64,000 bases of DNA. Source: an uncultured Solirubrobacteraceae bacterium. Lineage in GTDB: Bacteria > Actinomycetota > Thermoleophilia > Solirubrobacterales > Solirubrobacteraceae. Location of the stretch: contig CAVXBH010000014.1 in assembly GCA_963759945.1 (NCBI GenBank), forward strand, positions 88,884 to 152,883, written 5' to 3'. Shown piece after piece: positions 1 to 30,611 of the stretch. How positions within the stretch are numbered: position 1 is the stretch's first letter; every line of letters begins with the position of its first letter. The notes below the pieces were generated by a model. It searched no databases and was not told the origin of the DNA. It saw only the letters and a program-made list of their open reading frames with translations. The translations under genes and the position numbers were made by a program.

Positions 1-12
1 GGGAGGAGCTTC

Positions 13-2192
13 GTGTCCGTCGCGATAAGCGAAGGCCAGCTCGGCGCGAGCCTCCTCCGTGAGCTGCCGCCGCGCACGAGCGTCGAAGTCCGCGACGGCG
101 ACCGGGTCCTCGTGCGGACCGGCGACACCACCGGCGGCGACGACACGAGCTTTCAGGCTGGCGGGCGCCGCTTCGACACGCGCACGCACGTCCGGGCGCC
201 GACGGCGGGCCCGTGGCCCGCCGTTGTGCTCGGGCTCGGGCTGCTGCTCACCGCGCTGGTGGGTCTGACCTTGCTGGCCGGCCGGCGCCGCGAGCATTCC
301 CGGACCGTGGAGCGCGACGCGGAGCGCGACTTCTCCGCCGCCGTGCTCGCGGCGATGCCGGACGGTCTCCTGGTCCATGACGACACGACGGTGCTGGCGG
401 TCAACGACGCGCTCTGCGAGCTGAGTGGCTACGCACGCAAGGAGCTCATCGGCTCCACCGTGCCCTCGCGCCTGTGGCCGCCCGAGAGCCACCCGGACCT
501 CACCGACCTCGTCGCCGCGGCCGACCGGGGTGAGGAGGCCCAGGTCGAGACCGTGTTGCGGCGCAAGGACGGGAGTCTCCTCGAGGTGCTGCTCGGCGCG
601 AGCCCGGTCCGCGAGGTCAAGGGGAAGCGGATGCGCGTCGGCGTGATCAAGGACATCTCCGATCGCGTCGCGGCCGAGCGCGGCCTGCGCGAGTTCTCCG
701 ACGCCTCGGCGGAGGTGGTGGCCCGGCTGTCGATCGCCGAGCAGATCGAGTGGGTCTCCCCCTCCGCCCGCCAGGTCCTCGGACGTGAGCCCGGCCGAAC
801 TCGTCGGCAAGCGCTTCGGCGATCTCTTCGACGACAGCCCCGCCTCCGACGGCGCGATCCGCCGCGGCGGCGGGATCCGCCGCATCGAGCGGCCGGACGG
901 CTCCTCCATCCTCACGGAGACGACGCTCGCGCCCGCTGCGCAACGGCGAAGGCGAGGTCACGGGTATCCGCATCGCGCTGCGCGACGTCACCGAGCGCGA
1001 GACTGCGCGCCAGGCACTGGCGACGAGCGAGTCGCGGTACCGGACGCTGGTCGCCAACCTCCCGGAGGCACGGGTGATGATGGTCGACCGGGACGGCCGC
1101 TTCGTGTTCGCCGACGGCGACACCGATCTCAACCTCGGCCGCCAGGACTTCGAACCCATGTGGGCGACCGCCCTCACGGGCAGGCCGGGCGAGCTCGCCC
1201 ACTCAAGCGCGAACGGCCGCCACCATCTGCTGCGCTTCGTCCCCGTCCGCGACGCGGCCGGCGAAGTCGACGGCGCGATGTGCGTCGCCATCGACGTCAC
1301 GGTCATTCGCGAGCGCGAGGACGCCGCCCGGCGCGCCGACGCGCGCTTCCGCGCGATGTTCGAGCACGCCCCGACGGGCATCGGAATGGTCGACCGCGAC
1401 GGACGCATCGTCGAGGCCAACGAGACCTGGGCGCGAATGCTGGTCACCGACCCCGCCGAGCTGATCGGGCGGCGCCTCACGGACTTCGTCCACAGCGAGG
1501 ACCACGACGCGGTCAGGACCATCGCCGCGCTGGCCGCCGAGGGTGAGACGGAGACGACGGTCGAGCTGCGCCTGCGCGTCGACGGTCGCGAGGCGTGGGC
1601 GCTGATCTCCGCCTGCCGACTGCCCGACGCGGCCGACGCGCATCCGCGCGTGCTCTGCCAGGTGCAGGAGATCAGCGCGCGCAAGTCGCTCGAGTTCGAA
1701 CTGCGCGTCGCCGCCGACCACGACCCGCTCACCGGTGCGCTCAATCGGCGCGGCTTCGAGGCGCGGGCGCGCGAGCGGCTGAGCGAGCATCTGCGCCACG
1801 GCGGGACCAGCGCGGTGCTGATGGGCGACCTCGACGGCTTCAAGGCGGTCAACGACGACCTCGGCCACGCCGCCGGCGACACGCTCCTGCGGACGGTCTT
1901 CGCGGCCCTGTCGGTGACCATGCGCACGGAGGACCTGCTCGCCCGGCTGGGCGGCGACGAGTTCGCGATCCTCGTGCCGCACGCCGACGAGGTCGACCTC
2001 GACGTGCTCGCCGAGCGCGTGCAGGAGGCGCTGGCCGCCACGGCGCCGCCCGGCCACGAGGTCAGCGCGAGCATCGGCATCGCGATGCTGTCGCCCGACC
2101 GCACGCTCGAGTCGGCGCTCGAGGCGGCCGACGCCGCGCTCTACGTCGTCAAGGCGGCGGGCCGCGGCGGGCACCGGCACGCGCCGGCCTGA
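13..2192 (+). CDS. multi-PAS GGDEF diguanylate cyclase; reading frame broken near 780-790 and 950-1075
   Basis: GGGAGGA at 1-7, then GTG at 13. TM segment, PAS-like blocks (RYRTLVANLPE, RFRAMFEHAPTGIGMVD), C-terminal GGDEF domain with literal RLGGDEFAIL. Product must be stitched from track ORFs 13..1077, 785..1546 and 1074..2192. Confidence 0.8.
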
Positions 2193-2220
2193 TCGCTCGC
2201 TGGCACTACCGTCCGCCGCC

Positions 2221-3496
2221 GTGAAGCGCGTCCTGCTGCTTGCGTTCCTCCTGGCTGGTGTGATCCTCCGGCACACGCCCGGGCCGCGCCGTTGTCGACC
2301 TGCTTCTGGGAGGGGCCGATCTCCACCCAGCAGCCGTCCTCGCGCGGCTTCGACGGCCGCACGTTCAACTTCCCGGAGGAGTCCGCGACCTACTGGCTCG
2401 CCCGCTTCCACCTCGCCGAGGGACAGTCGCTCACGCTGCGCGGGCGCTACCCGCACGGGCGCTACATGTCGCTCAACGCGTACTCGGAAGGCGTGCCGAC
2501 CGATGCGCTCTCGGACGTCCTGATCGAGCCCGACGCCGGTGCCACCAACCCGTTCGTGGCCGGTCATCGGCGCGATCGCAAGCGGCGCGGCTGGACCGTC
2601 ACCGTGCGCAACGAGCCGCCGCCGGCCGAGGGACGAGCGCCGAACACGCTCTACGCGCAGCCCGACGGCGAGGCTGCCCATCGAGCTCGCCTATCGCGTC
2701 TACGAGCCCGACCGCGGGCGCGACCTGACCGGCGGCACCGGCCTCCCCGAGCCCGACCTCGACTGCGACGCGATCAACGACGCCAACCGCGACATCACCG
2801 TGCAGACGATCCAGCCCGCCCTGTGGCGCGCGGGCACCGCCTGCCGGCCCGGCCACCCCGCCTTCGACCCGGTGCGCTGGGAGCGCTTCTTCAACATCGA
2901 CTACGCGACCTCCGCGGTGCTCGCGGACTGCACCGCCGCGGGCTTCGTGGCCCGGCGGATGCTCAGCCCGGCGCAGCAGGGCGGCTTCTACTCCAACCGC
3001 GACTCGGCCTACATCTTCGCCCACCTGTCGCGGTTGCTCGGGGAGGTCGTCGTCGTGCGCGGCAAGCTCCCGCGCTTCCCCATCACCCGCGACGGCCGCC
3101 GCGCGCATGGGCCGAGGGCAACTGCGCTTCTGGTCGCTGTGCACGGGCGAGTCGCGCGTCACCACCCGCACGCCCGACTGCCTCGCCGACCGCCAGCTCG
3201 CGCTCGGCCGGCGGCGCGCCTACACCGTCGTCGTCTCCAAGCCGGAGGACCGGCCGGCCAACGCGCGCCGCCGGTGCGGCATCAGCTGGCTCGACATGGG
3301 CGACGGAGACGGCGACCAGCGGTCCGACTACGCCGTGCTGATCATGCGCAACATGCTCGTCGCGCCGACCTTCGAGCACGCCATCCAACGCGTGCCGCGC
3401 CCCGGCAGCGAGCCGCAGGTCATGGGCCCGTACTTCCCGCGCGCGCAGTACGCCGAGCGGGCCGACGTCGAAGCCCTGGGCTGCGGTCCTGTCTGA
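2221..3496 (+). CDS. secreted hypothetical protein, frame broken at least 3 times
   Basis: Signal-like MKRVLLLAFLLAGVIL at 2221. Protein-like text continues through ORFs 2292.., 2539.. and 3107..3496 (FWSLCTGESRV, YTVVVSKPEDRPANA). No family recognised. Confidence 0.45.
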
Positions 3497-3518
3497 TCCG
3501 ATCGAACTCTGGGAAGCG

Positions 3519-4337
3519 GTGCTGCTGGGCGCCGTCGAGGGGGTCACCGAGTTCCTGCCGATCTCGAGTACGGGCCACCTGACGATCGTCGAGCGACTGC
3601 TGGGCTACTCGACCGACGACCCGGACGTCACCGCCTTCACGGCGATCATCCAGGTCGGCGCTGTGCTCGCCACGCTGATCTTCCTGCGCCAGGACGCCAA
3701 GCGGCTGATCATCGCGGCGTGGCGAGGGCTGCGGTCCTCGGCCGAGCGCGACAACCCTGACTTCCGCTTCGCGCTCGCGGTCGTGATCGGGTCGATTCCG
3801 ATCGGCATCATCGGCCTGCTCTTCAAGGACACGATCGAGACCACGCTGCGCTCGCTGTGGTTCGTCGGCTCCGCCCTGATCCTCTGGAGCTTCGTGATGC
3901 GCTTCGCCGACACGCGCGCCACGCAGGAACGCGACGAGTCCGACGTCACCTGGAAGGACACGCTGATCATCGGCGTCACCCAGTGCCTCGCACTGATCCC
4001 TGGCGTCTCCCGCTCCGGCGCGACGATGTCCGCCGGCCTGCTGCGCGGCCTGGACCGCGTCACCGTCACGCGGCTGTCCTTCTTCCTCTCGATCCCGGCC
4101 CTGACCGCCGCCGGAATCCTGCAGGTCGCCGACGAGCACGACCGGATCGCCGACGGCGTCGGCTGGGCCCCGACCATCGTGGCCACCGCCGTCTCGTTCG
4201 TCGTCGCCTACGCCGCCGTCGCCTGGCTGCTGCGCTTCATCGCCGGCCACACGTACACGGTCTTCATCGTCTACCGCCTCGTGCTCGGCACCATCGTCCT
4301 GCTGCTCGTCGCCACGGGCGCCCTCGCCGCGACTTAG
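3519..4337 (+). CDS. uppP: undecaprenyl-diphosphate phosphatase (BacA/UppP)
   Basis: GTG start. LLGAVEGVTEFLPISSTGHL signature, PGVSRSGATM motif, polytopic membrane protein, intact 272 aa. Confidence 0.9.
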   Translation: MLLGAVEGVTEFLPISSTGHLTIVERLLGYSTDDPDVTAFTAIIQVGAVLATLIFLRQDAKRLIIAAWRGLRSSAERDNPDFRFALAVVIGSIPIGIIGLLFKDTIETTLRSLWFVGSALILWSFVMRFADTRATQERDESDVTWKDTLIIGVTQCLALIPGVSRSGATMSAGLLRGLDRVTVTRLSFFLSIPALTAAGILQVADEHDRIADGVGWAPTIVATAVSFVVAYAAVAWLLRFIAGHTYTVFIVYRLVLGTIVLLLVATGALAAT

Positions 4338-4604
4338 TCCCGTCTGCGCTTCAGGCGCCGCGACAGCTCGGCCGTAGCTAGCCGCTGGTGAGGGAGGGGA
4401 GCAGCCGGACACGCCGCGAGCTACCTCGAGTTCCGGCCGCAACCCTCCTCTGACGCCGGTCTGTGTCGCCTAGGTGCGCACATATCCCTCTAAGGCGACA
4501 CGAAGGCCACGACTCTCGGCAGGGTGGGCGCCGCTCCCCCTCCCTTACCAGCCGAATGGCTGCGGCGCGAGCGCTGCTCGCACAGATCAATTATTTTCCG
4601 GGCC

Positions 4605-5000
4605 ATGCTCGGACGCACGCTTCCCGCCGCCCTGCTCGCCGCCGCCGCCATGGCCGCGAGCCCTGCCCTGGCCGCTGCGCCGCCGGACGCGACGTACAAG
4701 GGCAAGACCAGCCAGAAGAAGAACGTGACGATCCTCACCGCGGGTGGGGACATCGACACGTTCTCGGTGAAGGTCAAGAACAACTGCGGCGCGACCAACC
4801 GGCCCCTGATCATCGGGTCCGACAGCGACATCCCGGTGAAGGCGAACGGGAAGTTCAACGTCAGCCTCGGGGAAGGCGCCTTCACGCTCAGCGGGCGCTT
4901 CACCGGACGCAAGGTCACCGGCAGGTTCCGCGAGCACTACGTCGACGAGCTGTTCGGCGACTGCGACACCAAGCAGGTCACCTTCAGCGCGCAACGCTGA
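4605..5000 (+). CDS. small secreted hypothetical protein
   Basis: ATG 4605 gives MLGRTLPAALLAAAAMAASPALAAAPP signal peptide, followed by a beta-rich 100-aa body. Confidence 0.5.
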   Translation: MLGRTLPAALLAAAAMAASPALAAAPPDATYKGKTSQKKNVTILTAGGDIDTFSVKVKNNCGATNRPLIIGSDSDIPVKANGKFNVSLGEGAFTLSGRFTGRKVTGRFREHYVDELFGDCDTKQVTFSAQR

Positions 5001-6291
5001 AGCGCACGGAGAAGCGCGCGCCGCCGCGCGAAGAGTCCGTCACGGTGACGGTCGCCCCATGCTCGCGGGCCTGCTGGGCGACGAGCGCGAGGCCGAGGCC
5101 GGAGCCGTCTCGCTCGGCCGCCTCGGGGAGTCGTTCGAAGGGCAAGAAGATGCGCTCGCGGTCGGCCTCGGGGACGCCTGTCCCGTCGTCGTCGACGGTC
5201 AGCTCGCCGGACTCGGTGAGCGCCACCCAGACGCCGCCACCGCCGTGGCGCTTCGCATTGGCGACGAGGTTGGCGACCAGCAGCCGCAGCCCCTCCTCCC
5301 AGCCCTGGACGATCACCGGTTCGTCCGGCAGCGCGAGCTCGGCGCCGGCTGCCGCGCGGGCCACCACCTCGGTGAGATCGACCGGCTCGAGCCGGGCGGC
5401 CATCGCGTCGCCACGCGCGAGGGCCTGGAGACCGTCGAGCAGCTCGACGAGCCGGCGCTGCTCGTCGAGTGCGTCGGCGAGCATCGCCGTGCGCTGCTCG
5501 GCCGGGACGTCGGGGTGCCGGTGCAGCGCCGACAGGGTGGCCTGCACCGTCGTCAACGGGGTGCGCAGCTCGTGCCCGGCGTCGAGGGTGAAGCGCCGGG
5601 TCGCGCCGACCGCCCGCGACAGTCGGCCGAGCATGCCGTTGAAGGACGCCGCCAGTTCGCGGACCTCGGCCGGGCCGTCGGTTTCGGAAACGCGCGTGTC
5701 GAGGTCGGCCTCGCCGGCGATCCGTCCCGTCGCGGCCCGCAGCCGACGCAGCGGGCCGAGGACGCCGACGGCGGCCGCGAACGTGCCGAGGCCGGCGATC
5801 AGCAGCGCCACCACGCCGTAGAGCAGCAGGCGCCGGTTGAGGTTCGCCTGGTTGCGCTCGAGAGTCGCCAGCGACTGAGTGACCTCCAGCGCCGCGTCGA
5901 GGTTGGAGTAGCGCACCGGCGTCACCAGTACGCGAAACCGCTCCCCGTCCTCCGTCACGGTGTGCAGGCCGGGCGATGGCGCATCGCCCGACACGAGCTC
6001 GGGACCGGCCACGAAGGCCGCGTTCCCGTTGAGCAGCACCCGCAACGAGGTCTTCGACGCGCCGAGCACGCGGTCCAGACGCTGCTGGGTGTCGGGGTCG
6101 AGCGTGGCTTCGGTGTTGAAGACGTCGAGCGCGGTGTCGCGCGAGAGGCGCGCCGTGTCGCGCAGGCGGTCGTCGAGTCCGTCGCGGGCGACCCGCTCGG
6201 TGTAGTTCGAGATCAACAGGCCGGCGACTCCGAGCACGACCACGATGACGAGGCCGACCCCCAGGCTCAGGCGGCCGCGGAGGCTGCGCAT
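4984..6291 (-). CDS. sensor histidine kinase (TM-HAMP-HisKA-HATPase)
   Basis: H-box HELRTPLTT, N/G boxes (NAKRHGGGG, DDDGTGVP, GSGLGLALV), N-terminal TM helix. Intact 435 aa. Confidence 0.85.
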   Translation of the reverse strand: MRSLRGRLSLGVGLVIVVVLGVAGLLISNYTERVARDGLDDRLRDTARLSRDTALDVFNTEATLDPDTQQRLDRVLGASKTSLRVLLNGNAAFVAGPELVSGDAPSPGLHTVTEDGERFRVLVTPVRYSNLDAALEVTQSLATLERNQANLNRRLLLYGVVALLIAGLGTFAAAVGVLGPLRRLRAATGRIAGEADLDTRVSETDGPAEVRELAASFNGMLGRLSRAVGATRRFTLDAGHELRTPLTTVQATLSALHRHPDVPAEQRTAMLADALDEQRRLVELLDGLQALARGDAMAARLEPVDLTEVVARAAAGAELALPDEPVIVQGWEEGLRLLVANLVANAKRHGGGGVWVALTESGELTVDDDGTGVPEADRERIFLPFERLPEAAERDGSGLGLALVAQQAREHGATVTVTDSSRGGARFSVRFSVAR

Positions 6292-6300
6292 CGGCTCAGG

Positions 6301-6982
6301 TTACGGCCGCAGGACGAAGCCGACGCCGCGCACCGTGTGCAGGACGCGCGGCTCGCCGCCGGCTTCGAGCTTGCGCCGCAGGTACCCGACGAACACGTCC
6401 GCGACGTTGGTCTTGGGATCGAAGTCGTAGCCCCAGACGTCCTCGTGCAGGCGTTCGCGCGACAGCACGTCGCCCGGGTTGCGCATGAAGAGGTCGAGCA
6501 GCTCGAGCTCGCGCGCGGTCAGCTCGAGGTCGCGCTCGCCGCGCAGCGCCCGATGACCCGGCCGGTCGAGGTACAGGTCACCGACGGTGATGTGCTCCGT
6601 GTCGGGGGCGGGCCGGCGGCGCAGCAGCGCGTGCAGGCGGGCGACGACCTCCTCGAGCGCGAACGGCTTGACCACGTAGTCGTCGGCTCCGGCCTCCAGG
6701 CCGTCGACGCGGTCGCCGATCTCGTCGCGCGCCGACAGCACGCACACCGGGAGGTCGTTGCCGGAGGCGCGTAGCCGGCGCAGGACCTCGAGGCCGTCGA
6801 GGTCGGGCATCGTCATGTCGAGCAGCATGATCGCGGGGTCGATCCGCTCGATCGCCTCGAGTGCGGCGCGGCCTCCGGAGGCCGGCACCACCTCGAAACC
6901 CTCGAGCGCCAGTCCCGCACCCGACCGCCTTGCGAATCCGCGCGTCGTCGTCGACCAGCAGGACGACGTGGCGTTCCGTCAT
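6301..6982 (-). CDS. OmpR-family response regulator, one frame break near 6895-6920
   Basis: [20 protein letters not shown] (frame of ORF 6578..7402) joins ORF 6301..6891 (receiver [12 protein letters not shown]; winged-helix [13 protein letters not shown]). The ATG overlaps the upstream stop as ATGA. Confidence 0.8.
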
Positions 6983-7362
6983 TCCGGCCGGATTGTTTCG
7001 CAGTCCTCGCCGACCGTGTCGGAGGCGTCGGCGAAGGCGACGTCGCGACGACCCGCCCCGCAGGAGAGGACGTCCGCGCCCAGGCCACCGCGCAGCAGGT
7101 CGTTGCCGGCACCGCCGAGCAGCGTGTCGTTGCCCGGGTTGCCGTAGAGCTTGTCGCGGCCGAGGTCGCCCGACAGGAGGTCGTCGCCGCCGCGGCCGCC
7201 GATGCGGTCGTTGCCGCCAAGGCCGCCGATGCGGTCGGGAGCGCGGGTCCCGACCAGCTTGTCCGGGCCGTCGGTGCCGACCCGGTCGACCGTGCGCGCG
7301 GCGCCGGAACCGGCGACAAGGGCGATCACGAACGTGAGAGTGAGAACAGCCAGGCGGCGCAT
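6979..7362 (-). CDS. secreted calcium-binding protein with RTX-like GGxGxD repeats
   Basis: MRRLAVLTLTFVIALVAGSGA signal, followed by repeated GGLGGNDRIGGRGGDDLLSGDLGRDKLYGNPGNDTLLGGAGNDLLRGGLGAD. Confidence 0.6.
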   Translation of the reverse strand: MRRLAVLTLTFVIALVAGSGAARTVDRVGTDGPDKLVGTRAPDRIGGLGGNDRIGGRGGDDLLSGDLGRDKLYGNPGNDTLLGGAGNDLLRGGLGADVLSCGAGRRDVAFADASDTVGEDCETIRPE

Positions 7363-8712
7363 CGGACCATTCAGGATGACGGACCCGCGGCCAAGGTGCC
7401 ATCGCATCTCACAGAACGCTCACGCGAGACGCGAGTACCGTCGAATACGTGCAGGAGATCGAGACAAGCGTCGCGGTGGTAGGGGCCGGGCCCGCCGGCT
7501 TCTACGCCGCGGAACGCCTGCTCACCGTCGAAGGCGTCGAGGTCGACCTGTTCGACCGCCTCCCGACGCCATGGGGCCTCGTGCGCGCCGGCGTCGCGCC
7601 GGATCACCCGAAGATCAAGCAGGTCACCAAGCGCTACGAGCAGACGGCTGCGCATCCGCGCTTCCGCTTCCACGGCGGCGTCGAGATCGGTGCGGTCATC
7701 ACCCACGAGGACCTGCTCGAGCACTTCCACGCGGTCATCTACACGACGGGCGCGGCGATCGGGCGAAGCCTCGACATCCCCGGCGAGGAGCTCGACGGCT
7801 GCGAGTCGGCCACCGACTTCGTCGCCTGGTACAACGGGCATCCCGACGGCGCCGACCATCACTTCGACCTGTCCAGCCATCGGGCCGTCGTGGTCGGCAA
7901 CGGCAACGTCGCGCTGGACGTCGCCCGCATGCTGATGCTGCCCGAGGCCAAGCTGCGCCAGACCGACGTCGCCGACCATGCGCTGGACAAGCTCGTCGGC
8001 GGAGCCATCCGCGAGGTCGTGATCCTCGGCCGTCGCGGCCCGGCCGAGGCGGCCTACACCACGCCCGAGCTGCGCGAGCTCGCCTCGTTCACGGACGCGA
8101 CGGTGATCGTCGATCCCGCAGGGCGGATCGCTCGAGACGCCCGAGGATGCCGAGACCCGCGTGCGGCGCAACCTCGAAGTGGTGCGCGAGTACGCGGCCA
8201 ACGAACAGCCGGCGGACGATCGCACGATCGTGCTGCGCTTCCTGACCAGCCCGGTCGCGGTGCTCGGCCACGACGAGGTCGAGGGCCTGCGCGTCGGCCG
8301 CAACGAGCTCGTGGACGGCCGGGCCCGTGCCACGGGCGACGAGGAGGAGATCGCATGCGGTCTGGTCATCTCCGCCGTCGGCTATCGCGGGCACCCGATC
8401 GCGGGCGTGCCGTTCGACGACTGCGAAGGGCACGATCCCCAACGACGACGGACGGGTCGGCGAACGGGTCTACGCCGCGGGCTGGGCCAAGCGCGGGCCG
8501 TCGGGCATCATCGGCACCAACAAGAAGGATGCGAACGAGACCGTCGCAAGGCTGCTGGCCGACCGCGAGTGCGGGCCAGTCGACGTGGCGGTCGAAGGAC
8601 CGGGCCAGCCTCGACGCGCTGCTCGAGCGCGCCGGCGCAATCGACTACGCGGGCTGGGAGCGCATCGACGCCCACGAGCGCGAGACCGGTGAGGCGCAGG
8701 GGCGCCCGCGGC

Positions 8713-13115
<4,403 letters not shown>

Positions 13116-19065: not shown

Positions 19066-19082
19066 TCGTCAAGTCGGTTACG

Positions 19083-19682
19083 ATGCGCACGGTGCCGAGC
19101 TCGACGACAACGCGCGAGACACTTCTCGAAGCCGCACTGCGGCTGCTGGAAGACCGCGGTCCCGGCGCTCTGCGCGTTCGCGATCTGGCAGAGCTCACCG
19201 GCAAGTCGACGATGGGCGTCTACACCCATTTCGGCTCCAAGCAGGGCCTGCTCGAGCAGCTGTACCTGCACGGCTTCAGTCGCTTGGAAGAGCGGCTGAA
19301 GGACGTCCCTTCAGCGCGAAACGACAGGGAGGAGCTCCTGACGTTCGCTTCCGCCTACCGCGGGTTCGCGATCGACAACGAGGCGCTCTACGGGTTGATG
19401 TTCGAGCGCGCGACTCCTGACTTCGTCCCCTCCGACGAGAGCCGGATGGCGGGGCTGGCGACGTTCGAGATGCTCGTCGACCGCATCCGGGAGTGGCGGC
19501 CGGAGCTCGCCGACCCCGCGTCCCAGGCGCACCTGATCTGGGGGGCGATGCACGGCTTGGTCAGCATCGAGCTGACGCATCGACGCTGGGGTGGACCCCT
19601 CGTCGCCCACCTGCAGGGGGAGCCTGCGCGAAACTACGCCGCGGCGATCGGGTCTCTGCTCGTCGCACTCGAGCAGAGCTGA
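19083..19682 (+). CDS. TetR-family transcriptional regulator
   Basis: N-terminal HTH TRETLLEAALRLLEDRGPGALRVRDLAELTGKSTMGVYTHF. Intact 199 aa. Confidence 0.85.
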   Translation: MRTVPSSTTTRETLLEAALRLLEDRGPGALRVRDLAELTGKSTMGVYTHFGSKQGLLEQLYLHGFSRLEERLKDVPSARNDREELLTFASAYRGFAIDNEALYGLMFERATPDFVPSDESRMAGLATFEMLVDRIREWRPELADPASQAHLIWGAMHGLVSIELTHRRWGGPLVAHLQGEPARNYAAAIGSLLVALEQS

Positions 19683-19701
19683 TCGCGCTGCGCGTACCCG
19701 C

Positions 19702-21150: not shown

Positions 21151-21687
21151 CTGCGCGGCTCGCGGCGGTAGACCTGCACGGCGCAGCTCGCGGTGAGGGT
21201 GCGCCAGCTCGGCGGCGACCGCCTCGAGGTCGGCCGGCTCGCCGTCGGCCGGCGCGAAGACCGCGAGCTCGCCGAACGTCATGGGCTGCGGATCGCTGGC
21301 CAGCGGCGGGCTGAGGAAGTTCACGCCCGCGACCGCGCGCGTCGCGTACACGAGCTCGCCCGCGACCGGGGTCATCGCGTTCTCCACCTCCGCGAGCACG
21401 TCGTGTCCCGCCGGGGACGTGAAGTGAACGGCGACGAGCAGCTGCCTGCGATGGAGCTCCGGGTCGCGGTGCGACGCGTGCGTGAACGACGCCTCGAAGC
21501 GGCGCACGCCCGCCTCACGCAGCTTGTTGATCGCCAGGTAGTACGGGTTCAGCGTCATCGCCAGGAAGCGGCGGTGCGAGGGGTAGCTGACGATCAGCAG
21601 CTTGTCCGCCTGCTGCGCGCCCGTCACGGAGCGCTCGTGGCGGCCCATCCAGCGCACCCGACCGCCGACGGCGCTCAGCACCGGCAT
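21103..21687 (-). CDS. hypothetical protein (true N- and C-termini uncertain)
   Basis: MPVLSAVGGRVRWMGRHERS...LLIVSYPSHRRFLAMTLNPYYLAINKL. Protein-like, but no family recognised. Confidence 0.35.
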   Translation of the reverse strand: MPVLSAVGGRVRWMGRHERSVTGAQQADKLLIVSYPSHRRFLAMTLNPYYLAINKLREAGVRRFEASFTHASHRDPELHRRQLLVAVHFTSPAGHDVLAEVENAMTPVAGELVYATRAVAGVNFLSPPLASDPQPMTFGELAVFAPADGEPADLEAVAAELAHPHRELRRAGLPPRAAQHLPPVDSRRLASSSR

Positions 21688-21827
21688 GACTGAGCAGCGC
21701 GTACCAGCGGTAGCGCGGCGAAGCGGGACGTGCTGATGAGGTTGACGACGTCGAGCGGGCCGGGCAGGTCGCGCCGGGCGAACTCGACGAGCGGCGCGCG
21801 GGCGGATGCGGGCCAGCATCGACGGCC

Positions 21828-23594
21828 TCACGCGTGCAGCTCGCAGAAGTAGGCGCCTGCTCGACGGCGTGCTGGGCAGGGGATCCGCCGAGCCCGTTCT
21901 GGAGGCCGCCCTCGTAGAGGAACCTCGCCGGTTGGGGTTGGCTGGCCGGCACCGTCGCGTACGCGCCGGGCTGCGAGCCGACCCACGGGTTGGGCGGGCT
22001 CGCGTTCGTGGCGCCGGTGCTCGGGACCTCGGGCAGCTTCGTGATCGGCGCGCCCGGCCCGTACGGCCTGAGCGCGACCGGGACGAACAGCGCGTTCTCA
22101 CGCTCGTAGAGCCAGGCGAGCAGCTCCTTGGCGAGCCGCTGGTAGCCGGGATCGTTGGCGAGGTTGCGGATCTCGTACGGGTCCTCCCAGGTGTCGTAGA
22201 GCTCGTACTCCTGCTCGTGGACGATCTCCGTGCCGGCGAAGTGCTGATCCTCGACGGCGACGTAGCGCGCGAACTTGTAGCGGCCGTCGTAGATCGCCCG
22301 GATGTGGGCACGGATCGGGACGGCGTTGCCGGTGTTGTAGATCGGGATACTCGTCGATCCGGTACAGGACGCAGTCGCGCGGGCCGCGCGCGTTCGGCCG
22401 CTCGAGCGCGCCGACCAGGCTCACCCCACGCAGCCACGGCCAGCGTGTCGACGGGGTCTGCCTCACCGGCGATCTCGAGCAGCGTCGGCACGAGGTCGAT
22501 CCGCCTCGCCGAGCGCCTGCGAGCGACCCCCGCGCGGGAAGCGCTTCGGGTAGACGACGGTGAACGGGACGCGGTTCTGCTCGTCGTAGATCGTCGTGCC
22601 CTTGTTCTGCAGCCGGTGCGCCGAGCCGAGCTCGCCGTGGTCGGACGTCCGCACGATCACGGTGTCGTCGAGCACGCCCGCGTCGATGACGGCCTTCACC
22701 GCGGCGCCGAGCATCTCGTCGGTGCCGACGATCAGGTCGTAGTAGGTGTTGAGCTGCCCGCGCCAGTAGTCCTCGGAGTCCTGGACCTCGTTCGGCGTGC
22801 CGGCGACGAGCGAGGCGGCGTTGCGGAAGCGCGCCTGCGCGCTCGGCTTGTCGCCGAGGCCCGGCTCGGCGTAGAACGACGGCTCGATCTGCGGGTCGTA
22901 GTCGGGGCGCTTGAAGTCGGCGCGGAAACCACGCGGGTAGAACTGGATGTCGTGCGGGTTGAGCAGGCTCAGCACGCACAGCCACGGCTGCTCGTCGGCG
23001 GCGTGCTGCTTGAGCCAGTCGACGGCCTGCCCGGTCCAGATCGGGTCGTTCGTGTAGCCGTCGTTGTATCCGCCGACGTCCGCGGGCGGCGAGATCGCGG
23101 AGTGGTCGAAGCCGTAGCCGCCGAGCGGGTTGCCTGCGGCGAGGTCGAGCGCGCGCCTCGAGGTTGGTGGGCGGCTCCCCGGGAAACGAGAGGTGCCACT
23201 TGCCGAAGAACGCCGTCCGGTAGCCGACCTCCTTGAAGAGGTCGCCGATCGTCGGGATCGTCGGGTCCATCGTGAACTGCGTGCCGAGCGACGAAGGTGC
23301 CGAACATGCCCGGTCTGCGGCGCGTACATCCCCGTCCAGAAGCAGGCGCGGGAAGGCGAGCACGCCATCGACGACGTGTGGAAGCGGTCGATCCGCGTGC
23401 CGTTCGCGTCCAGCCAGCAGCGCACCGGCGTCGGCAGGTCGTCGGGCAGCCGGTCCTGGTGGCGCTCCTGATCGGTCATCAGGATCAGGACGTTGGGCGC
23501 CGGCGGCGTGGCCGCGCCGAGCGCCTGCGGGCGCGAGCGCGGCGAGACCGGTCGCGGCCGCGCCGGCGAGCAGACCGCGCCGGTCGATGGTCAT
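21828..23594 (-). CDS. Tat-signal arylsulfatase-family enzyme (copy 1), multiple frame breaks
   Basis: MTIDRRGLLAGAAATGLAAL Tat signal, NVLILMTDQ, canonical FGly motif ACSPSRACFWTG, FFGKWHLS, TSDHGE. C-terminus ...YFCELHA* at 21828. Confidence 0.8.
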
Positions 23595-23599
23595 GCGCT

Positions 23600-24528
23600 T
23601 CACCACGTCGATGCGCTCCGGTGAGCGCGTCCACCGTCCAGGCCCGGCCGCCTGCGACGGCGAGGCCGCGTGGCGCTCCGCCGACGCGGGTGCGACCGGC
23701 CGTGGCCGAGCGCGACGATCCTCCCGGCACCGCCGAGCGCGACGAGCGCGCGCCCGTGGCGCGACCACGCCACGCCGCTCGGCTGCCGGCCGGCGTCGTG
23801 TGCGGTGACGGCGCCGGTGCGCAGGTCGACGACGCTGACGCGGTCGGCGTGGGAGACGAGCAGCTTGTGTCCGTCCGGGGAAAGGGCGACGCGGTGGGGC
23901 GACCACGGCACGCGGAGGCGCTTGCGGACGCGGCCGGTGGGCAGGTCGATGCGCGCAAACGTGGTGGTCGCCGTTCAGCGCGACCCACGCCGCGTTCCCC
24001 GATCGCCGCGACCCCGCGCGGCACCGTGCCGATGTGGCGTGCTGCCGAGGATCTTGAGCGTGCGCGCGTCGAGCACGTGCGAGGTGCCCTGACTGCTCTC
24101 CGCCGGTGACGACCAGCCGCTCGCCACCGGGCGTGAAGGTCGACGTAGCTCGGCGCCGGACCGACCGCCACTGCGCCTGAGCAGCTTGCGCGTGCGCAGG
24201 TCCACGAGCGCGAGGCCGGGCTCGTCCCAGAACGCCGTCGTGACGGCGGCAAGCCGGCCGTCGGGCGAGACGGCGACATCGAGCGGCTGCCCGCCGACGT
24301 CGATGAGATGCGGGCGGCCGCGACCGCTGACGATCGCGATCGTGCGGCGACGGTCGTGCGCGACGACGACCCGGCGACCGGACGGCGCCACCGCGATCGC
24401 CCGGCCGCGGAGGACCGCCTCCTGCCGGGCGCGGTTCGGCGCGGTCCGGGCCGCGGCGTTCGCGGACGACCGCGGCAAGCGAGCCGAGCGCCGGTACCGG
24501 CGAGCAGCTCCCGTCGGGTCGCGGTCAT
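23600..24528 (-). CDS. Tat-signal YVTN-type beta-propeller repeat protein (copy 1), multiple frame breaks
   Basis: MTATRRELLAGTG. Repeats such as VAVSPDGRLAAVTTAFWDEPGLALVDLRTRKLL and ALSPDGHKLLVSHADRVSVVDLRTGAV. The ATG overlaps the sulfatase-2 stop (ATGA). Confidence 0.6.
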
Positions 24529-26320
24529 GCGGGCCCGAGCTCGCACAGGAACGACGCGCGTGCCGCGGCACGTGCCTCTGCCGCCGCGCGCGAGCTGTCG
24601 GCCGTCAGCGGTGCGCGTCCGGCACCGCCCTCGTAGACGGCGTCGACGAGGTGCGGGTCCGGACACGGGCAGCTGGACGTAGTCGCCTGGCGCGCCGCTC
24701 GCGCCGGTCGTGCCGGGCTCGAGCTGCTCCAGCACCGTGACCGGGCGCCCGAGCGGGTCGCGGCCGGATCACCTCGACCAGCGACGGGCCGCCGTAAGCC
24801 GGGACCTCGACCGGCGAGAAGTGCTCGTCCTCGAGCTCGCGCAGGCGCACGAGCATGTCGTCGAGCAGCGGCTTGTAGGCCTGGTCGCGCGCGAGGTTGC
24901 GCAGCTCGTAGGGGTCCTCGAGCAGGTCGTAGAGCTCGTACTCCTGGTCGTCTTTGAGCTCCGCCTGCGGCTTGCCCTTCATGCGCGACGTAGCGGGCGA
25001 TCTTGAAGCGCCCCGACAGCGCGGCGCGCACGTGGCGCTTCCAGGGCTCGCCCGTGCCCGCGAAGTCCTGCGGCGACCACACCTCGTCGCACGTGCTGAC
25101 CGTGAAGTCCTTGCCGGACGTGTGCACCGGATCCTTGATCGCGGGCACGAGCGAGCGGCCGCGCAGCCACGGGTAACGGGAGTTCGGGTCGCGCACGCCG
25201 GCGAGCTCGAGGCAGGTCGGGACGATGTCGACGGAGTCGGCCAGCGCGTTCGTGCGCGCGCCCTGCTGCCGGCCGAAGCGCTTCGGCCAGCCGATCGAGA
25301 GCGGCATCCGCAGCTGCTCCTCGTAGATCATCGGGCCCTTGCCGACGGCGCGGTGCGAGCCGCCCATCTCCCCGTGGTCGGCGGTCCGGATGACGACGGT
25401 GTCCTCCATGCCGCCGGACTCGTGCAGCGCCTTGATCACCGCGCCGTAGTTCTCGTCGGTGTTGACGATCAGGTCGCAGTACGTGTTCATCAGCCGCTTC
25501 CACGTCGCCAGTGTCGTCGTCGGCGATGCTGCCGCGGATCAGCGCGGCGCCGTCGGCGTACTGGCGGTGCACCTGCGGCTTGGTCGGCGGGTCGTCCTCG
25601 AAGTTGAGCGGCAGCTCGACCTCCCAGTCGGGGCGGGTGACGTCGGCGCTGAAGCCGCGCGGGAAGTACGCGATGTCGTGCGGGTTGAGCAGCGAGACGA
25701 CGCAGAACCACGGCTGGTCCCCGCCGCCGTGCTCCTTGCAGCCAGTCGATGCCCTGCTTGGTCCAGAGCGGGTCGTTGTAGACGCCGTCGTTGTATCCGG
25801 CGGGCTCCAGCGACAGCGACTGCTCGGAGTAGTCGAAGCCGTACTCGGCCAGGTAGTTGCCCTGCGCGTTGGCGCCCGCGCCCTCGGGCAGCGTCACGCC
25901 GGCCATGCTCAGGTGCCACTTGCCGAAGAAGGCCGTCTTGTAGCCCTGCTCGCGCATCAGGTCGCCGATCGTCGGGATGCGCGGGTCGAGCGAGAACTGC
26001 CAGCTCTGCAGGAAGTTGCCGAAGATCCCGTTCTGCGGCACGTACATGCCGGTCCAGAAGCACGCGCGGCTCGACGAGCACTGCACGGCGCTGTGATGGA
26101 AGCGATCGAAGCTCACGCCGCGGTCGTCGATCCAGTTGCGCGCCGGAAGCGGGCAGGTCCTTGGGCGTCCACTGCGGCAGGCGCTCCTGGTCGCACATCA
26201 GGATCAGGACGTTCGGCTTGCGAGCGGGGCGCGCGCACCGGCAGGCGCTGCCGTCAGCGCGGCGGCGCCGAGCGCGCCGGCGGCGCCGGCCTTCAGCGCC
26301 TCGCGGCGGGTCGTGCTCAT
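24525..26320 (-). CDS. Tat-signal arylsulfatase-family enzyme (copy 2) with non-canonical CSSSR motif, multiple frame breaks
   Basis: MSTTRREALKAGAAGALGAAAL, NVLILMCDQ, QCSSSRACFWTG, FFGKWHLS, TADHGEMGG. C-terminus ...SFLCELGPA*. Confidence 0.8.
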
Positions 26321-27317
26321 GCGTTCGCTCCGATGCGGATGCGATGCAGGTCGCCCGTGATCCCGTCGGCGACGATCGCGTGGCGGCCCGCGAGGGCGAC
26401 GGAGCGCGGCGCGCCCGAGGTTCTTGAACGTCCGGCGGCGGCGCCCGGTGCGGCCGTCGACCATCGCCACCGCGTGCGCGCCCATGAGCGCGACGAGCGG
26501 CGTGGCGGCCGGAGCGCGTGAAGACGACGTCGGTCGGGTCGCAGCCCGAGTTCGACCGGCTTGCGGGCGCGGCGCCGGTCCAGGTCGAGCGGAGTGACAG
26601 CCCGGCTGCGGAAGCCGTTGTGGGTGACGAATCCGCGCCTTCCGTCCGGGGAGAGCGCGACGCGATAGGGGAGCGCATCGGTGGCGATGCGGCGCACCTT
26701 GCCGGTGGCGACCGTGACGTAGGCGACCGCCGAATCGCCGTTGAGCGCCACGAGCACGTGCCGGTTGTGCCGGTCCACGGCGACCCCGCGCGGATGCGCG
26801 CCGACCTTGATGGCCGGATGAACACGGCCCGTCCTGAGGTCGACGCGGGTCAGCGTGCCTTCGGCGCCGCCGCCGGCCACCCACGCGACCTTGCCGCGGT
26901 GGGTGACGGTGCCGGGCTCGGGGCCGACGTCGAGGCGGTGGACACGGCCGTGTGCGCAGGTCGACGACGGCGAGGCCGGGCCGGTCGTAGTAGGCGGTCG
27001 TGACGAGCGCGTAGCGACCGTCGCGGGTGACGTCGACGTCGCAGGGCGCGCCGCCGACGTCGATGGAGTCGCGGCGCTTGAGCTTGCGGCCGCGATGCGC
27101 GGTGATGGTCGTCGCGCGTTGTCGGTGGTCCATGCCGTGCGGTGGTCGGGCGTGACGGAGAGCCCGTGGGTCCGGATGCCCGGGGCCTTCGGCGTGCAGG
27201 GTGGCGAGCTTCGGCGGCGGCGTCCGCCGGGCGCACGTCGAGTGCGAGAGCGAACCGCTCGACCGCCAGGCCGCCTACGAATCCGCGCCGCGTCGCGGCG
27301 ATCTCCCCTCCGAGCAC
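26317..27317 (-). CDS. YVTN-type beta-propeller repeat protein (copy 2), multiple frame breaks; start approximate
   Basis: VTRDGRYALVTTAYYDRPGLAVVDLRT and VALSPDGRRGFVTHNGF. Ends GITGDLHRIRIGANA*, with an ATGA overlap onto sulfatase 2. Confidence 0.55.
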
Positions 27318-27337
27318 GAGCGGCAGAGTACGCCTAC

Positions 27338-27368
27338 TGATGACAGCCTGTCAAGGTGGTTGTCATCA
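27338..27368. promoter_or_regulatory. inverted repeat TGATGACA-N15-TGTCATCA (inner GACAGcCTGTC) upstream of a TetR gene
   Basis: Read directly. About 20 nt upstream of the TetR start. Confidence 0.3.
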
Positions 27369-27388
27369 ACGTGCGGATTTCGGTTACC

Positions 27389-28036
27389 ATGCCGCCGCGA
27401 ATGAGCGTCGCCGCCCAGCGCACCAAGCGTCGTCAGCAGCGCGAGGAGACGCGCGCGCAGATCCTCGCGGCCGCGGAGGCGCTGCTGCGCGAGGGCTCGT
27501 TCCGCGATCTGACCGTCGACGCGGTGATGTCCGCCACCGGGCACACCCGGACCGTCTTCTACCGCCACTTCGACGACATCCCCACGCTGGTGCTCGCGCT
27601 GATGCAGGAGGTCGGCGGCGAGCTCGTGCGGGTGAGCGAGGCGTGGGCGCGAGACCGACCGGCTGGGTCCCGACGAGGCGCGCGCCCAGCTCGCCCTGTT
27701 CGTCGACTTCTACGCGCGCCACGGGCGCGCTCGTGCACGCGGTCGCCGAGGCCGCCCACCACGACGACGCCGTCGAGGAGGCCTACACGGCAATGGTCGA
27801 GGGCTTCATCGCGCTGACCACGCGCGCCATCCAGGCGCGCGTCGACTCCGGGACGGTGGCTCCGGTCGACGCGCCCGAGATCGCGCGCGCACTGGTGCGG
27901 ATGCTCAACGGCTACCTGGACGACGCGCTCGGCTCGCGGACGCGGACCGACCCCGAGCGCGTGCTCGACGCGGTGCGCGACCATCTGGTCGCGCACGCTC
28001 TTCGGAGAGGCGCCGGCCGCTGTCGGTGCTCGCTGA
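27389..28036 (+). CDS. TetR-family regulator, 1-2 frame breaks; stop inferred
   Basis: REETRAQILAAAEALLREGSFRDLTVDAVMSATGHTRTVFYRHF HTH. The C-terminal domain continues in the frame of ORF 27142..30603. Confidence 0.7.
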
Positions 28037-29356
28037 CGTCGGGCGCTGGGCCGCCGAGGACGGCGGCCCGCGGCGCCGCCAGTGCGTCCCGGGCTCGCTC
28101 GGTCTCGTTGCCGGAAGGCGGCTCGGGGTCGGCGCGACCCGCGACGCGCTCGGGACGACGATGGTCGTCCTGCGCGATCCGGGCGAGGTCTACGTCCTGC
28201 GTCACTCGCTGGGGCGGCGGCCGCTGGTGGACCCGGTCACCGCATGGGTCGAGCGGGTCGACCCCGAGACGCTGGCCGTCGTCGAGCGCTCGAGCGACCT
28301 GCCCGCCGGCCCGTTCTGGCCGGGCGGGCTGGCGGCCCACGCCGACGGCTCGCTGCACGTGGTCTTCGGCAACCACTGCCACCGGCTCTCGTCGCGGACT
28401 CGAGCTGCTCGCGACGCGCCGGTTGCCGGCGCCGCGGCCCTACAACTCGTTCGTCGTCCTGTCCGACGGAACGCTCGCCATGAAGGACTTCGACCGCGAC
28501 CTGCGCGAGCCGGCGCGGATCGTGCTGCTCGATCCCGACGACGCTCGAGCCACGCGGCGAACCGGTCGTCGACTCGGCGAGCCCTCCATCGCGCGGCTGA
28601 CCGCCGACGGCGACGACCTCTACGTCGTCGGCGCTCGCGCCGTCCACCGTCTGCGCTGGGACGGCGCCGTCCTGTCGCGCGACGCTCACTGGGGCGGCAC
28701 CTACCTGCAGGACGGCCACAGCTACGGCTGGGATCCCGTCGTCGCCGGCGGCCAGCTGTGGTTCATGGACAACGGCGCGCACGACGTTCGTCACGACGAT
28801 GCGCGGCGCAGGGGTGGCGCCGGGCCGGTGCAGCTGTGGCGATCTCGCTCGACGATCCCGCCGACTGGGAGGCGGTCGAGGTATGCGGCCTGCCGCACGG
28901 GGCGGTCACCGAATCCGCCGCTGTTCGACGCCGAGCGCCGGATCGCCGTCGCCTACGACTCCGCCAACGGCGTCGTGCAGGCCTTCCGCTTCGAGGGCGG
29001 CTCGACGCCGCTCTGGCGGCGCGAGCTCTCGCACGCCGCGCACATGATCCTGTTCACCGAGACCGGCGAGCTCGTGCTCCACGACTTCCACGGGCCGCGC
29101 TTCGGCCGCACCCGCGCCGGCGCGCGCCGCGAGGCGCCGCGCCACCTTCGTCATGCGCAGCGACCGGCTGCGCCGGCTGCGCGACCGGGCTCAGCCGCGA
29201 CGACGTCGTCGTGGTCGACATCGAGACCGGGCACCGAGCGTGGCCGCGCGACCGTCCCGACGCCTGATGCAGTCCGTGGTCTTCCCCGCGCCGGGCTTCG
29301 ACCGCGACCTCTACTGGTGCACGATGAGCACGCTCGCCCGGCTGGCGGTCGCGTGA
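28026..29356 (+). CDS. hypothetical beta-rich protein, at least 3 frame breaks
   Basis: Protein-like text in three frames (YNSFVVLSDGTLAMKDFDRDL, GQLWFMDNGAHD, AVAYDSANGVVQAFRFEGGS, ends FDRDLYWCTMSTLARLAVA*). Confidence 0.45.
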
Positions 29357-30035
29357 GTCTGCGCGACACGATCGGCCGCCGCGCTGATGCCCCGGACCGA
29401 TCGTCGGCGCTGTCGACGGTGCGCGGGCCCGCGGCGGGTGGCGGCGGCGCTCGCGCGCGCTCGGCCGGAACGCCGCAGGTGCGGCTGTTCGTCGCCTTCG
29501 ACGATCCCGCCAGCGCGGTCGCACTGCTCGGGCTGGTCGAAGGTTGGCGCGGCCGGCGCGTCGACCTGCTCGTGGAGCCGGTCGTCGCGCGCGGCATCCC
29601 GGGCGACCCGGCGGTCGAGGCCAAGCGCGCCTATGCGGTGGTCGACGCGCGCCGCCTCGCGCCGCGCGACGGGCTGGAGCTCGTGCGCGACGAGCCGGTC
29701 GACGCCGGCCGACACCGCGTTCCTGGCGGCGTGGGCCGCCGCGCTCGCCCGGCGACGCAGCGCACGACGTTCTGCGCGCGGCCGATGCGCCGCTCTGGTT
29801 CGAGTCCGACGGCCCGGTCGACCCGGCCGGCTTCGCTCGCGCTCTGGCACGCGCACCGGCAGCGAGCCGCCGACGCCGCGCCGACGACCTGCCCGGCGAG
29901 CGCGGCATGCGCCGGCGGCGCCTCTACGACACGCCGGTCGCCGTGCTTCGCGGGCCAGTGGTTCTTCGCCCACGAGCGCCTCGCCGCAGATCGAGCACGC
30001 GCTCGACGAGCTGGGGTGGACGGCAGCGCGCATGA
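29353..30035 (+). CDS. DsbA-like (2-hydroxychromene-2-carboxylate isomerase family) paralog, frame breaks
   Basis: GTG overlaps the upstream TGA. VRLFVAFDDPASAVAL...GQWFFAHERLAQIEHALDELGW. Confidence 0.45.
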
Positions 30036-30611
30036 CCGCGCAGCTGGACTTCTTCTTCTCCTTCCGCAGCCCGTACTCGTACCTGGCCGGGCCGCGCGCG
30101 TTCGCGCTGGCCGACCGCTACGACGTGGAGGTCGTCTTCCGCGGCGTCATCCCGATGGCCATGCGAGGCCAGTCGGTGCCGATGGCCAAGCGCCTGCACA
30201 CGCTGCGCGACGTCAAGCGCGAGTCCGACGCGCCTCGGCATGCCGTTCGGCCGGATCCACGACCCGATCGGCGACGGCGCGATGCGCTGCCTGCTGGTCG
30301 TCCGAGCACGCCGCGGACGCCGGCCGCGTGCGGGAGTTCGTGCTCGAGGCCAGCCGCGGCATCTGGGCGGAGGCGATCGACGTCGCCGCGCGACGAGCGG
30401 TCTGCGCGCCGTCTGCGAGCGCGCCGGCCTCGACTGGGCGACCTGCCGCAGCGGCGCTCGAGGATCCGGCGATCCGCGCAGCGCGTCGACGCCAACACCG
30501 CACGCGCTCGCCGAGCACGGCCACTGGGGCGTGCCCGTGTTCGTCCTCGACGGCGAGCTGTACTGGGGCCAGGACCGGATCGAGGACGTCGAGCGCGCAC
30601 TGACTCACTAG
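30032..30611 (+). CDS. DsbA-like 2-hydroxychromene-2-carboxylate isomerase family protein, frame breaks
   Basis: MTAQLDFFFSFRSPYSYLAG and C-terminal HGHWGVPVFVLDGELYWGQDRIEDVE. Confidence 0.65.

Follow-up and report, generated by a model that had tools for sequence, protein, structure and literature searches.

The window, i.e., the whole stretch of 64,000 nucleotides of Solirubrobacteraceae DNA analysed here, contains a broad region rich in interrupted reading frames (positions 1-30611), a block without frame switches, and a second, shorter region of dense interruptions (Table 1). The genes of the first region encode, among others, a PAS-PAS-GGDEF protein, an FprA-like FAD oxidoreductase, the catalase-peroxidase gene product KatG, a tyrosinase-domain protein, and two sulfatases. 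The switch-free block comprises a lower-GC island with genes for a Y1 transposase-like protein, a 1731-aa TSP3/VWA protein, an IS3 element, AbiEi, ECF sigma factors, two SSB proteins, and a Toprim protein, and it also includes a host-like ligase gene and comM.

Table 1. Features of the window and the state of their reading frames (junction positions are accurate to about 15 nt; a dot in the strand column denotes a block).
Feature	Position	Strand	State	Basis
PAS-PAS-GGDEF gene	31-2162	+	three frames; junctions near 779, 932	Viterbi
Unnamed coding stretch	2161-3481	+	4-5 switches (about 2169, 2277, 2673, 3092, 3482)	Viterbi
Block with BacA/UppP, histidine kinase, response regulator, and RTX-repeat protein	3483-7416	.	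mostly clean	orthologues, Pfam
BacA	3483-4331		one frame	
Histidine kinase	4990-6282		one frame	
FprA-like FAD oxidoreductase gene	7449-8750	+	four frame pieces	tblastn, Pfam
Small ABM-like gene	9487-9794	+	three frames; junctions about 9581, 9653	tblastn
katG	10475-12742	-	four frame pieces; breaks about 11607, 11316, 10831	tblastn of 7 intact orthologues
Fur	12699-13139		one frame	
Tyrosinase-domain gene	13139-15369	+	three frames; junctions about 13673, 13782	Pfam, Viterbi
Peptidase_Mx	15482-16393		one frame	
GNAT-like gene	16384-17013	-	in-frame TGA at 16777-16779	tblastn against L037
First TetR	19062-19676		one frame	
Reading frame 19708-21075	19708-21075		one frame	
Block with two sulfatases, second TetR, and unnamed genes up to 30596	19701-30611	.	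error-dense	Viterbi, tblastn
Sulfatase 1	21866-23510	-	compensated frame excursions with stops	tblastn
Sulfatase 2	24522-26228	-	at least 5 pieces	tblastn
Second TetR	about 27201-27999	+	match 27350-27649 between frame switches	Pfam
Block with lower-GC island (62-67% GC)	30612-59300	.	switch-free	composition, ORFs, Pfam, junction tally
1731-aa ORF	33852-39047		intact	ORF
IS3 orfA / orfB	41769-42101 / 40861-41772		intact	
Ligase ORF	56633-57772			
comM	57665-59284		intact; 73% GC, within clean block	
Second block	59390-63995	+	error-dense; 14 switches	Viterbi
ParB_N fragment	59511-59639		flanked by frame switches	Pfam

Reading frames were followed with a codon-usage Viterbi tracker trained on 861 long open reading frames (ORFs) of the same genome. 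In positions 1-30611, it identified 65 frameshift-like junctions (49 of the +1 type and 16 of the -1 type), i.e., 2.1 frame switches per kb, with about 15-20% of tracker junctions expected to be false positives. Positions 19701-30611 accounted for 39 switches (3.6 per kb), and 14 were found in 59301-64000. No switch was detected in 30612-59300, about half of which was called coding. The same tracker returned 0.12-0.35 junctions per kb in every GC bin of control DNA from relatives and metagenomes (182-194 kb) and 0.17-0.23 per kb at the relatives' loci. The analysis confirmed that the frame breaks are truly present in the deposited sequence, far above chance. The preliminary description, made from the sequence alone, had claimed that most core genes are frame-broken, and the tracker count together with orthologue and Pfam confirmation at the named genes bears this out.

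The core of the window showed little synteny with five genomes of the genus, so that orthologues were available for some genes only. The relatives are soil metagenome-assembled genomes (MAGs) of Solirubrobacteraceae, many of them from a Nanopore-only catalogue. Comparison with orthologues, a check that the preliminary description had proposed, displayed the breaks against intact genes of these relatives, with no same-species reference among the scanned contigs. Intact orthologues agreed (tblastn) that katG, the FprA-like gene, the ABM-like gene, and both sulfatase genes are broken. For example, the intact orthologue L012 (471 aa) matched the FprA-like gene in frames 3, 1, 2, and 3, with junctions at about 8112, 8423, and 8570, all of the +1 type, and Pyr_redox_2 was found in the first piece only (Pfam). 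Likewise, the 176-aa ORF of L004/L014 matched the ABM-like gene in frames 1, 2, and 3 (tblastn). DNA alignment of katG with relatives revealed one extra base at each of the breaks at 11607 and 10831, neither in a homopolymer, and placed the indel at 11316 in a variable stretch. The intact orthologues used for the error-dense block 19701-30611 were L035, L049, L050, and L051 (tblastn). Pfam supported the breakage claimed for the tyrosinase, PAS-GGDEF, and ParB-like genes: positions 2-86 of the Tyrosinase profile were matched in 13139-13672 and positions 170-213 in 13780-15369, in different frames; one PAS domain was situated in 31-780, and a PAS plus the GGDEF domain in 933-2162; and the ParB_N fragment of the second block covered profile positions 29-70 only. 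The unnamed stretch behind the GGDEF gene had no Pfam match, and the breaks there are indicated by codon usage.

Other core genes were found in a single frame (Table 1). Throughout the block 3483-7416, orthologue matches were single-frame (tblastn) and domains full-length (Pfam), the response regulator showing one break near 6923, with profile positions 1-18 missing from its frame (Pfam). The GNAT-like gene, which shares 74% identity with L037, bears its TGA within the alignment, adjoining a one-residue gap. This was the one in-frame stop seen, and almost no other lesions were observed.

The island genes had been described as uninterrupted, and the 1731-aa ORF, IS3 orfA/orfB, the two SSB genes, the Toprim gene, and comM do read through. 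Their intactness is documented mainly by long ORFs and full-length Pfam domains and not by the tracker, which made no call for about half of the island even when retrained on lower-GC ORFs. Some details of the preliminary description were not confirmed. For the 1731-aa protein, called a toxin there, the Pfam matches were to TSP3 and, weakly, VWA, and none was to a toxin domain; among the island ORFs tested, none matched a family of serine proteases (E <= 0.01), so that the label of an S1 protease found no confirmation; and the breakage claimed for the ligase ORF was not demonstrable.

Across the 4.02 Mb of the whole genome (53 contigs), frameshift-like junctions numbered 4,819, corresponding to 1.2 per kb and to about 4,000 breaks above background. 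The rpoB gene, with a sole match in the genome, was in pieces and changed frame at least 5 times, and rpoC lay in at least 3 pieces. Compared to relatives (85-96% DNA identity), rpoBC, at C42:120300-128100, carried about 15 insertions and about 4 deletions of a single base, together with one two-base insertion, that are present in this genome (G000) alone. Orthologue identity held at 60-86% through successive frame pieces of katG and the sulfatases (68-82% for katG pieces and 71-86% for sulfatase pieces; tblastn), and short out-of-frame excursions went back to the original frame. The 4.0-Mb genome, in 53 contigs, has a completeness of 65.97%, compared to 91-96% for relatives of the same size; the unpublished genome G015 figured solely in the underlying table and supports no claim here. 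In G011, a second genome of the genus with few contigs and 68% completeness, katG was broken too, at other places.

Insertions outnumbered deletions by 2:1 genome-wide and by about 4:1 in rpoBC, and the indels were mostly single-base. GC- or homopolymer-dependent errors had been named as the likeliest cause, and the GC part of that proposal stands: at 64-68% GC, junction density was 0.37-0.53 per coding kb, and above 75% GC it was 2.8-4.3. The homopolymer part does not, since runs of 4 or more bases within 12 nt of junctions were no commoner than at GC-matched control sites, and the indels resolved to the base in rpoBC and katG, roughly 20 in number, all lay in runs of 3 or fewer. For 4- to 6-mers within 15 nt of junctions, enrichment reached at most 1.6-2.4 fold, in a test weakened by the uncertainty of the junction positions, and no slippery heptamer or homopolymer tract marked the shift sites. 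GATC was considered as a motif or methylation cause owing to its enrichment by eye in the rpoBC list and was rejected, as the genome-wide k-mer test showed none. The junctions were strongly clustered. A two-state model gained 855 log-likelihood units over a uniform rate and assigned 2.7 junctions per kb to 34% of the genome and 0.44 to the remainder; median block lengths were 3-6 kb, dirty blocks of 3-35 kb were seen, clean and dirty stretches alternated sharply, and the lag-1 correlation of junction density was 0.42. Additionally, GC at 1-5 kb distance predicted junction density independently of local GC (scikit-learn regression). The insertion bias and the kb-scale blocks are features absent from the preliminary description, and the blocks exceed what GC alone accounts for.

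Environmental DNA was also considered. One soil sequencing run matched with only 6% of sampled words (a share of 0.06), and its contigs, which may stem from another strain, were short, mostly 90-99% alike, and from relatives. Soil-metagenome contigs (95-98% alike) were without one base at 17999 and 23309, exactly the predicted junctions; this backs these two junctions only and does not decide the question. Many apparent joints with the soil run had sides of 21-45 letters in the metagenome and were treated as cross-matches. No same-species reference was found among metagenome contigs with a sulfatase piece as query (best 84-86% protein identity) or among genome contigs with an rpoB piece (best 91%).

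Taken together, we regard the frame breaks as technical consensus indel errors of a draft metagenome-assembled genome and not as pseudogenes, with a probability of roughly 0.93. A technical cause had already been preferred to mass pseudogenisation, and the genome-wide extent of the breaks, rpoB and rpoC included, strengthens that choice. Mostly single extra bases, less often missing ones, would have entered at sites where long reads were too few or too noisy for consensus. Every gene class is struck, few-kb error stretches alternate with nearly clean ones, and the errors are more frequent where kb-scale G+C is richer. The genes of the island and the adjoining comM read through because they lie in a clean stretch. 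Some single breaks could be genuine and would look the same as the errors. As for platform and depth, a low-coverage Nanopore-only or other long-read assembly is likely; assembly of the catalogue of relatives relied on Flye followed by one round of Medaka, and Nanopore-linked errors were reported in its low-coverage MAGs (PMC12313526). However, the insertion-biased, non-homopolymer signature is unlike what has been published on residual errors in long-read assemblies of good coverage, and for this reason platform and cause are only what we infer.

It is possible, although we do not favour it, that the blocks have another technical origin: short-read polishing or bridging of a long-read draft, in which GC-rich stretches received too little short-read coverage and stayed uncorrected, or co-existing strains that confused the consensus and spared a recently acquired clonal island. 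Such an origin fits a density that tracks kb-scale GC and not local sequence context, the sharp alternation of clean and dirty stretches, and the documented under-representation of high-GC DNA in short reads (PMC10182627). However, coverage gaps of short reads are typically shorter than the dirty blocks (3-35 kb), comM at 73% GC belongs to the clean block, the sequence itself gives no sign of which polishing was used, and the closest related catalogue is Nanopore-only. A very improbable reading is that the kb-scale error blocks mark dense base or backbone modification that disturbed long-read base calling, the foreign island being unmodified and read cleanly; if this were true, the error map would trace, indirectly, where Solirubrobacteraceae DNA carries a patchy, GC-linked modification.

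Mass pseudogenisation, housekeeping genes such as katG included, would likewise place real breaks in the deposited sequence, where they are indeed found. It is nevertheless highly improbable and close to refuted by the single-copy essential genes rpoB (5 or more frame changes) and rpoC (3 or more). The sheer number of breaks above background also stands against it, as do the absence of decay (identity is equal on both sides of breaks, and excursions are compensated), the near absence of lesions other than the one in-frame stop, the clustering of breaks by position and not by gene, and the same defect at other sites in the low-completeness assembly G011. Least credible of all is that the broken genes are expressed by means of transcriptional slippage or programmed ribosomal frameshifting. 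In its favour, IS3 orfA/orfB, the window's one natural example, does employ a frameshift of this type, as is established for the IS3 family. Against it, the junctions lack a homopolymer or slippery motif and combine +1 and -1 shifts, several per gene, and we know of no bacterial precedent at such a scale.

Consensus error as the preferred reading has practical rather than biological value, as technical breaks that reach even rpoB and rpoC are uninformative on the biology of the organism. Gene calls, pseudogene counts, pathway inferences, and protein families derived from this genome are corrupted, the burden being about one break per gene and rising to about 3 per kb over a third of the genome. 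At 71% GC, out-of-frame stop codons are few, and frameshifts therefore produce long chimeric ORFs and not short ones, so that neither coding density nor ORF length exposes the problem. Split, fused, or 'novel' proteins from the GC-rich parts of this genome call for caution, and the lower-GC island genes are more trustworthy. The same defect probably affects other MAGs of this kind, such as G011, with few contigs, low completeness, and high GC.

When compared to known systems, reductive genome evolution with many pseudogenes, e.g., in Mycobacterium leprae, shares the many interrupted frames. In contrast to that process, essential genes are hit here as often as others and the breaks cluster by position; decay of the sequence and large deletions are absent, and nonsense codons are very few. 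Residual errors of well-covered PacBio and Nanopore assemblies resemble the present ones in that indels exceed substitutions and GC content plays a role. However, those described with ARAMIS in high-GC PacBio genomes are G/C deletions in homopolymers (PMC8574707) and those of Nanopore R10.4 are homopolymer indels (PMC9262707), whereas insertions without homopolymer context prevail here at a far higher rate, up to 3-4 per kb. Gene-fragmenting long-read indels are detected and corrected by proovframe (bioRxiv 10.1101/2021.08.23.457338) and Kastor (PMC12007338), and the Microflora Danica long-read catalogue (PMC12313526) mentions them in MAGs of low coverage. In that catalogue, visible errors were tied to low GC and long homopolymers (PMC12313526), unlike the mostly inserted bases outside homopolymers whose density rises with GC in our genome, and its coding-density check would presumably not flag this genome, out-of-frame stop codons being rare at 71% GC. 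The likeness to long-read (meta)genome errors lies in single-base indels that split conserved genes genome-wide, marker genes included, and lower the completeness estimate of a genome that is contiguous (N50 above 100 kb) yet poorly scoring.

The frame breaks that run through the core genes of positions 1–30611 belong to the deposited sequence and not to the organism. Owing to its high GC content, the window carries long open reading frames (ORFs) in all frames, so ORF lists alone cannot decide on frame breaks, and three independent lines were used: a GC3 phase plot followed by a codon-usage frame tracker (Viterbi decoding, with 861 long ORFs of the source draft genome, G000, as training set), intact orthologues found in genomes of the genus or on soil metagenome contigs, and Pfam. 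The window is C14:88884-152883 of G000. Defining a junction as a frame change on the same strand with no stop at the junction, the tracker called 65 junctions in 1–30611, none in 30612–59300, and 14 in 59301–64000; the right-hand flank (59.4–64 kb), including the ParB-like gene, is thus junction-dense once more. Tracker junctions coincided with homology-defined breaks, for example at 10823, 11310, and 11609 in katG, which validates the tracker. All three lines bear out the broken core genes of the preliminary description; many are indeed split, but BacA, the histidine kinase, Fur, Peptidase_Mx, one TetR, and the gene at 19708–21075 each occupy a single frame.

Features of the window and the state of their reading frames
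Feature	Position	Strand	Observation
PAS-PAS-GGDEF gene			Three frames (Pfam)
Response regulator			First 18 profile positions missing in frame (Pfam)
FprA-like gene	7449–8750		Frames 3, 1, 2, 3 against intact orthologue
Small ABM-like gene			Frames 1, 2, 3 against intact orthologue
Stretch just downstream of katG	10408–10473		Recurs on at least eight other G000 contigs (C11, C18, C36, C48, C46, C6, C34, C16)
katG	10475–12742	minus	Frames -1, -2, -3, -1 against seven intact orthologues
fur-family regulator	12699–13139	minus	Directly upstream of katG
Tyrosinase domain			Split across frames (Pfam)
GNAT-like gene	16384–17013	minus	In-frame TGA at 16777–16779 beside a one-residue gap against a 74%-identical orthologue
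Sulfatase 1	21866–23510		Two out-of-frame excursions returning to frame, stops between (orthologue comparison)
Sulfatase 2	24522–26228		At least five pieces (orthologue comparison)
Second TetR			Between junctions (Pfam)
Y1 transposase-like gene	30634–31362		
1731-aa ORF	33852–39047	minus	Uninterrupted
IS3-family element	40861–42101	minus	orfA (HTH_Tnp_1) and orfB (rve) in different frames
SSB gene	49339–50031	plus	Full-length SSB domain, GC-richer part of island
SSB gene, adjacent to first	50113–50688	plus	Full-length SSB domain, GC-richer part of island
ORF upstream of Toprim gene	50689–51150		Overlaps Toprim start in another frame
Toprim protein	51015–52190		After the two SSB genes
ParB_N fragment (ParB-like gene, right-hand flank)			Between junctions (Pfam)

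The same tracker called 4,819 junctions in the whole of G000 (4.02 Mb, 71% GC, 53 contigs), or 1.2 per kb, distributed over all larger contigs, against 0.12–0.35 per kb at any GC in control sequences (relatives' loci and Illumina-type metagenome contigs). The sole junction-rich control locus, with 12 junctions in 5.6 kb, was G011:C6:79861-85451, from a genome of the same genus (40 contigs, 68% complete) whose katG lies in at least six frame pieces, broken at sites other than those of G000; G005, 62% complete in 3 contigs, is a possible third case. The marker-gene completeness of G000 is 65.97% (contamination 1.53%), while same-genus genomes of the same size reach 91–96%. RNA polymerase provides the strongest argument for a technical origin: the single rpoB match in G000 is fragmented, with five or more frame changes, rpoC is broken into three or more pieces, and a cell with such an rpoB would not be viable. 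Over 7.8 kb aligned with relatives at 85–96% DNA identity, the rpoBC indels private to G000 comprised approximately 15 one-base insertions, one two-base insertion, and approximately 4 one-base deletions. Orthologue identity is equal before and after each break, indicating no decay in the broken genes, and lesions other than frame breaks are nearly absent. The only one seen, the TGA of the GNAT-like gene, has the look of a substitution error or of two neighbouring indels that compensate each other, and recoding seems less likely. These findings reject mass pseudogenisation, and the technical origin that had been preferred from the sequence proved right, given the genome-wide excess over controls and the broken rpoB and rpoC. 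All other inferences from G000 call for caution on this account.

A single public run, a soil metagenome of 2024, contained any of the window (0.06 share of the sampled words), and over 10001–30000 it provided short contigs, mostly from relatives. Nearly all small indels listed there were bases absent from the soil contigs relative to the window; for instance, contigs 95–98% alike are one base short at each of the predicted junctions 17999 and 23309. These missing bases agree with insertion errors in the window, short of read-level proof. Same-species DNA was not found in metagenome-contig and genome-contig searches with sulfatase and rpoB pieces.

Regarding the island (30.6 to ~57 kb, 62–67% GC, with a GC-richer portion at 49–53 kb), GC is 70–76% in the first 30.6 kb of the window and returns to 70–75% beyond 57 kb. 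No interruption occurs in the 1731-aa ORF, IS3 orfA and orfB, both SSB genes, or the Toprim gene, all with full-length domains, nor in the adjoining comM (73% GC), which bears out the description of several long island genes as intact. The frame difference between orfA and orfB is the natural programmed frameshift of the family and not an error. Some labels were not confirmed: the supposed toxin, the 1731-aa protein, matches only a bacterial TSP3 repeat and, weakly, VWA and CarboxypepD_reg in Pfam, without a toxin domain, and is more suggestive of a large adhesion or surface protein; none of the tested ORFs matches any serine protease family; and a break was not demonstrable in the ligase ORF. 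Together, comM and the island form one essentially error-free block of ~29 kb, a length inside the range of clean blocks elsewhere in G000, with no junctions in the ~13.5 kb called coding, where ~5–6 would be expected at the GC-matched rate, ~2 of them background. The block fits lower GC, with which few errors go all over G000, and possibly higher depth. The ORF overlapping the Toprim start may be a gene in its own right, or else mark the only frameshift of the island.

The furA-katG arrangement is known from actinobacteria, and the fur-katG pairing is kept in relatives' loci. Downstream of katG, a stretch of ~30–50 nt recurs at 81–100% identity in G000. It is possibly a short repeat dispersed in the genome and perhaps REP-like, which would be in keeping with the presence of the Y1 transposase-like gene.

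The errors are biased towards insertions, with 3,280 junctions of +1 type and 1,539 of -1 type in the whole of G000, 49 and 16 in the first 30.6 kb of the window, and a ratio of ~4:1 in rpoBC. Of the two dependences proposed at the outset, that on GC stands, as junction density climbs steadily across G000 from 0.37–0.53 per coding kb at 64–68% GC to 2.8–4.3 above 75%. A homopolymer cause is ruled out: the longest runs within 12 nt of junctions are distributed as at GC-matched control sites, and where indels were resolved to the base, in katG and rpoBC, none lies in a run longer than three bases. No short motif, GATC included, was enriched at junctions. Junctions are clustered (variance-to-mean ratio ~1.8 within GC strata, lag-1 correlation 0.42), and a two-state model, with 2.7 per kb in 34% of G000 and 0.44 per kb in the remainder, outperforms a uniform rate by 855 log-likelihood units; its blocks are typically 3–6 kb long, reaching 35–69 kb. 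Density is also predicted by the GC of DNA 1–5 kb away, independently of the bin's own GC. Given this kilobase-scale clustering, the predictive value of distant GC, and the lack of local context, the cause operates at the length scale of long reads and not on local sequence.

The error-rich stretches would be those where the consensus rests on very few or poor reads; uneven short-read polishing and strain mixtures are possible alternative technical causes. The genomes nearest to G000 by a search with an rpoB piece are Solirubrobacteraceae/Solirubrobacterales soil metagenome-assembled genomes (MAGs), many of them named MFD…bin… with Flye-style contig names. For many related MAGs the source is a Nanopore-only catalogue, built with Flye and a single Medaka round, in which Nanopore-linked errors are reported for low-coverage MAGs (PMC12313526). 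In well-covered assemblies, the residual errors of PacBio are G/C deletions in homopolymers (PMC8574707) and those of Nanopore are homopolymer indels (PMC9262707), and the error signature of G000 differs from both.
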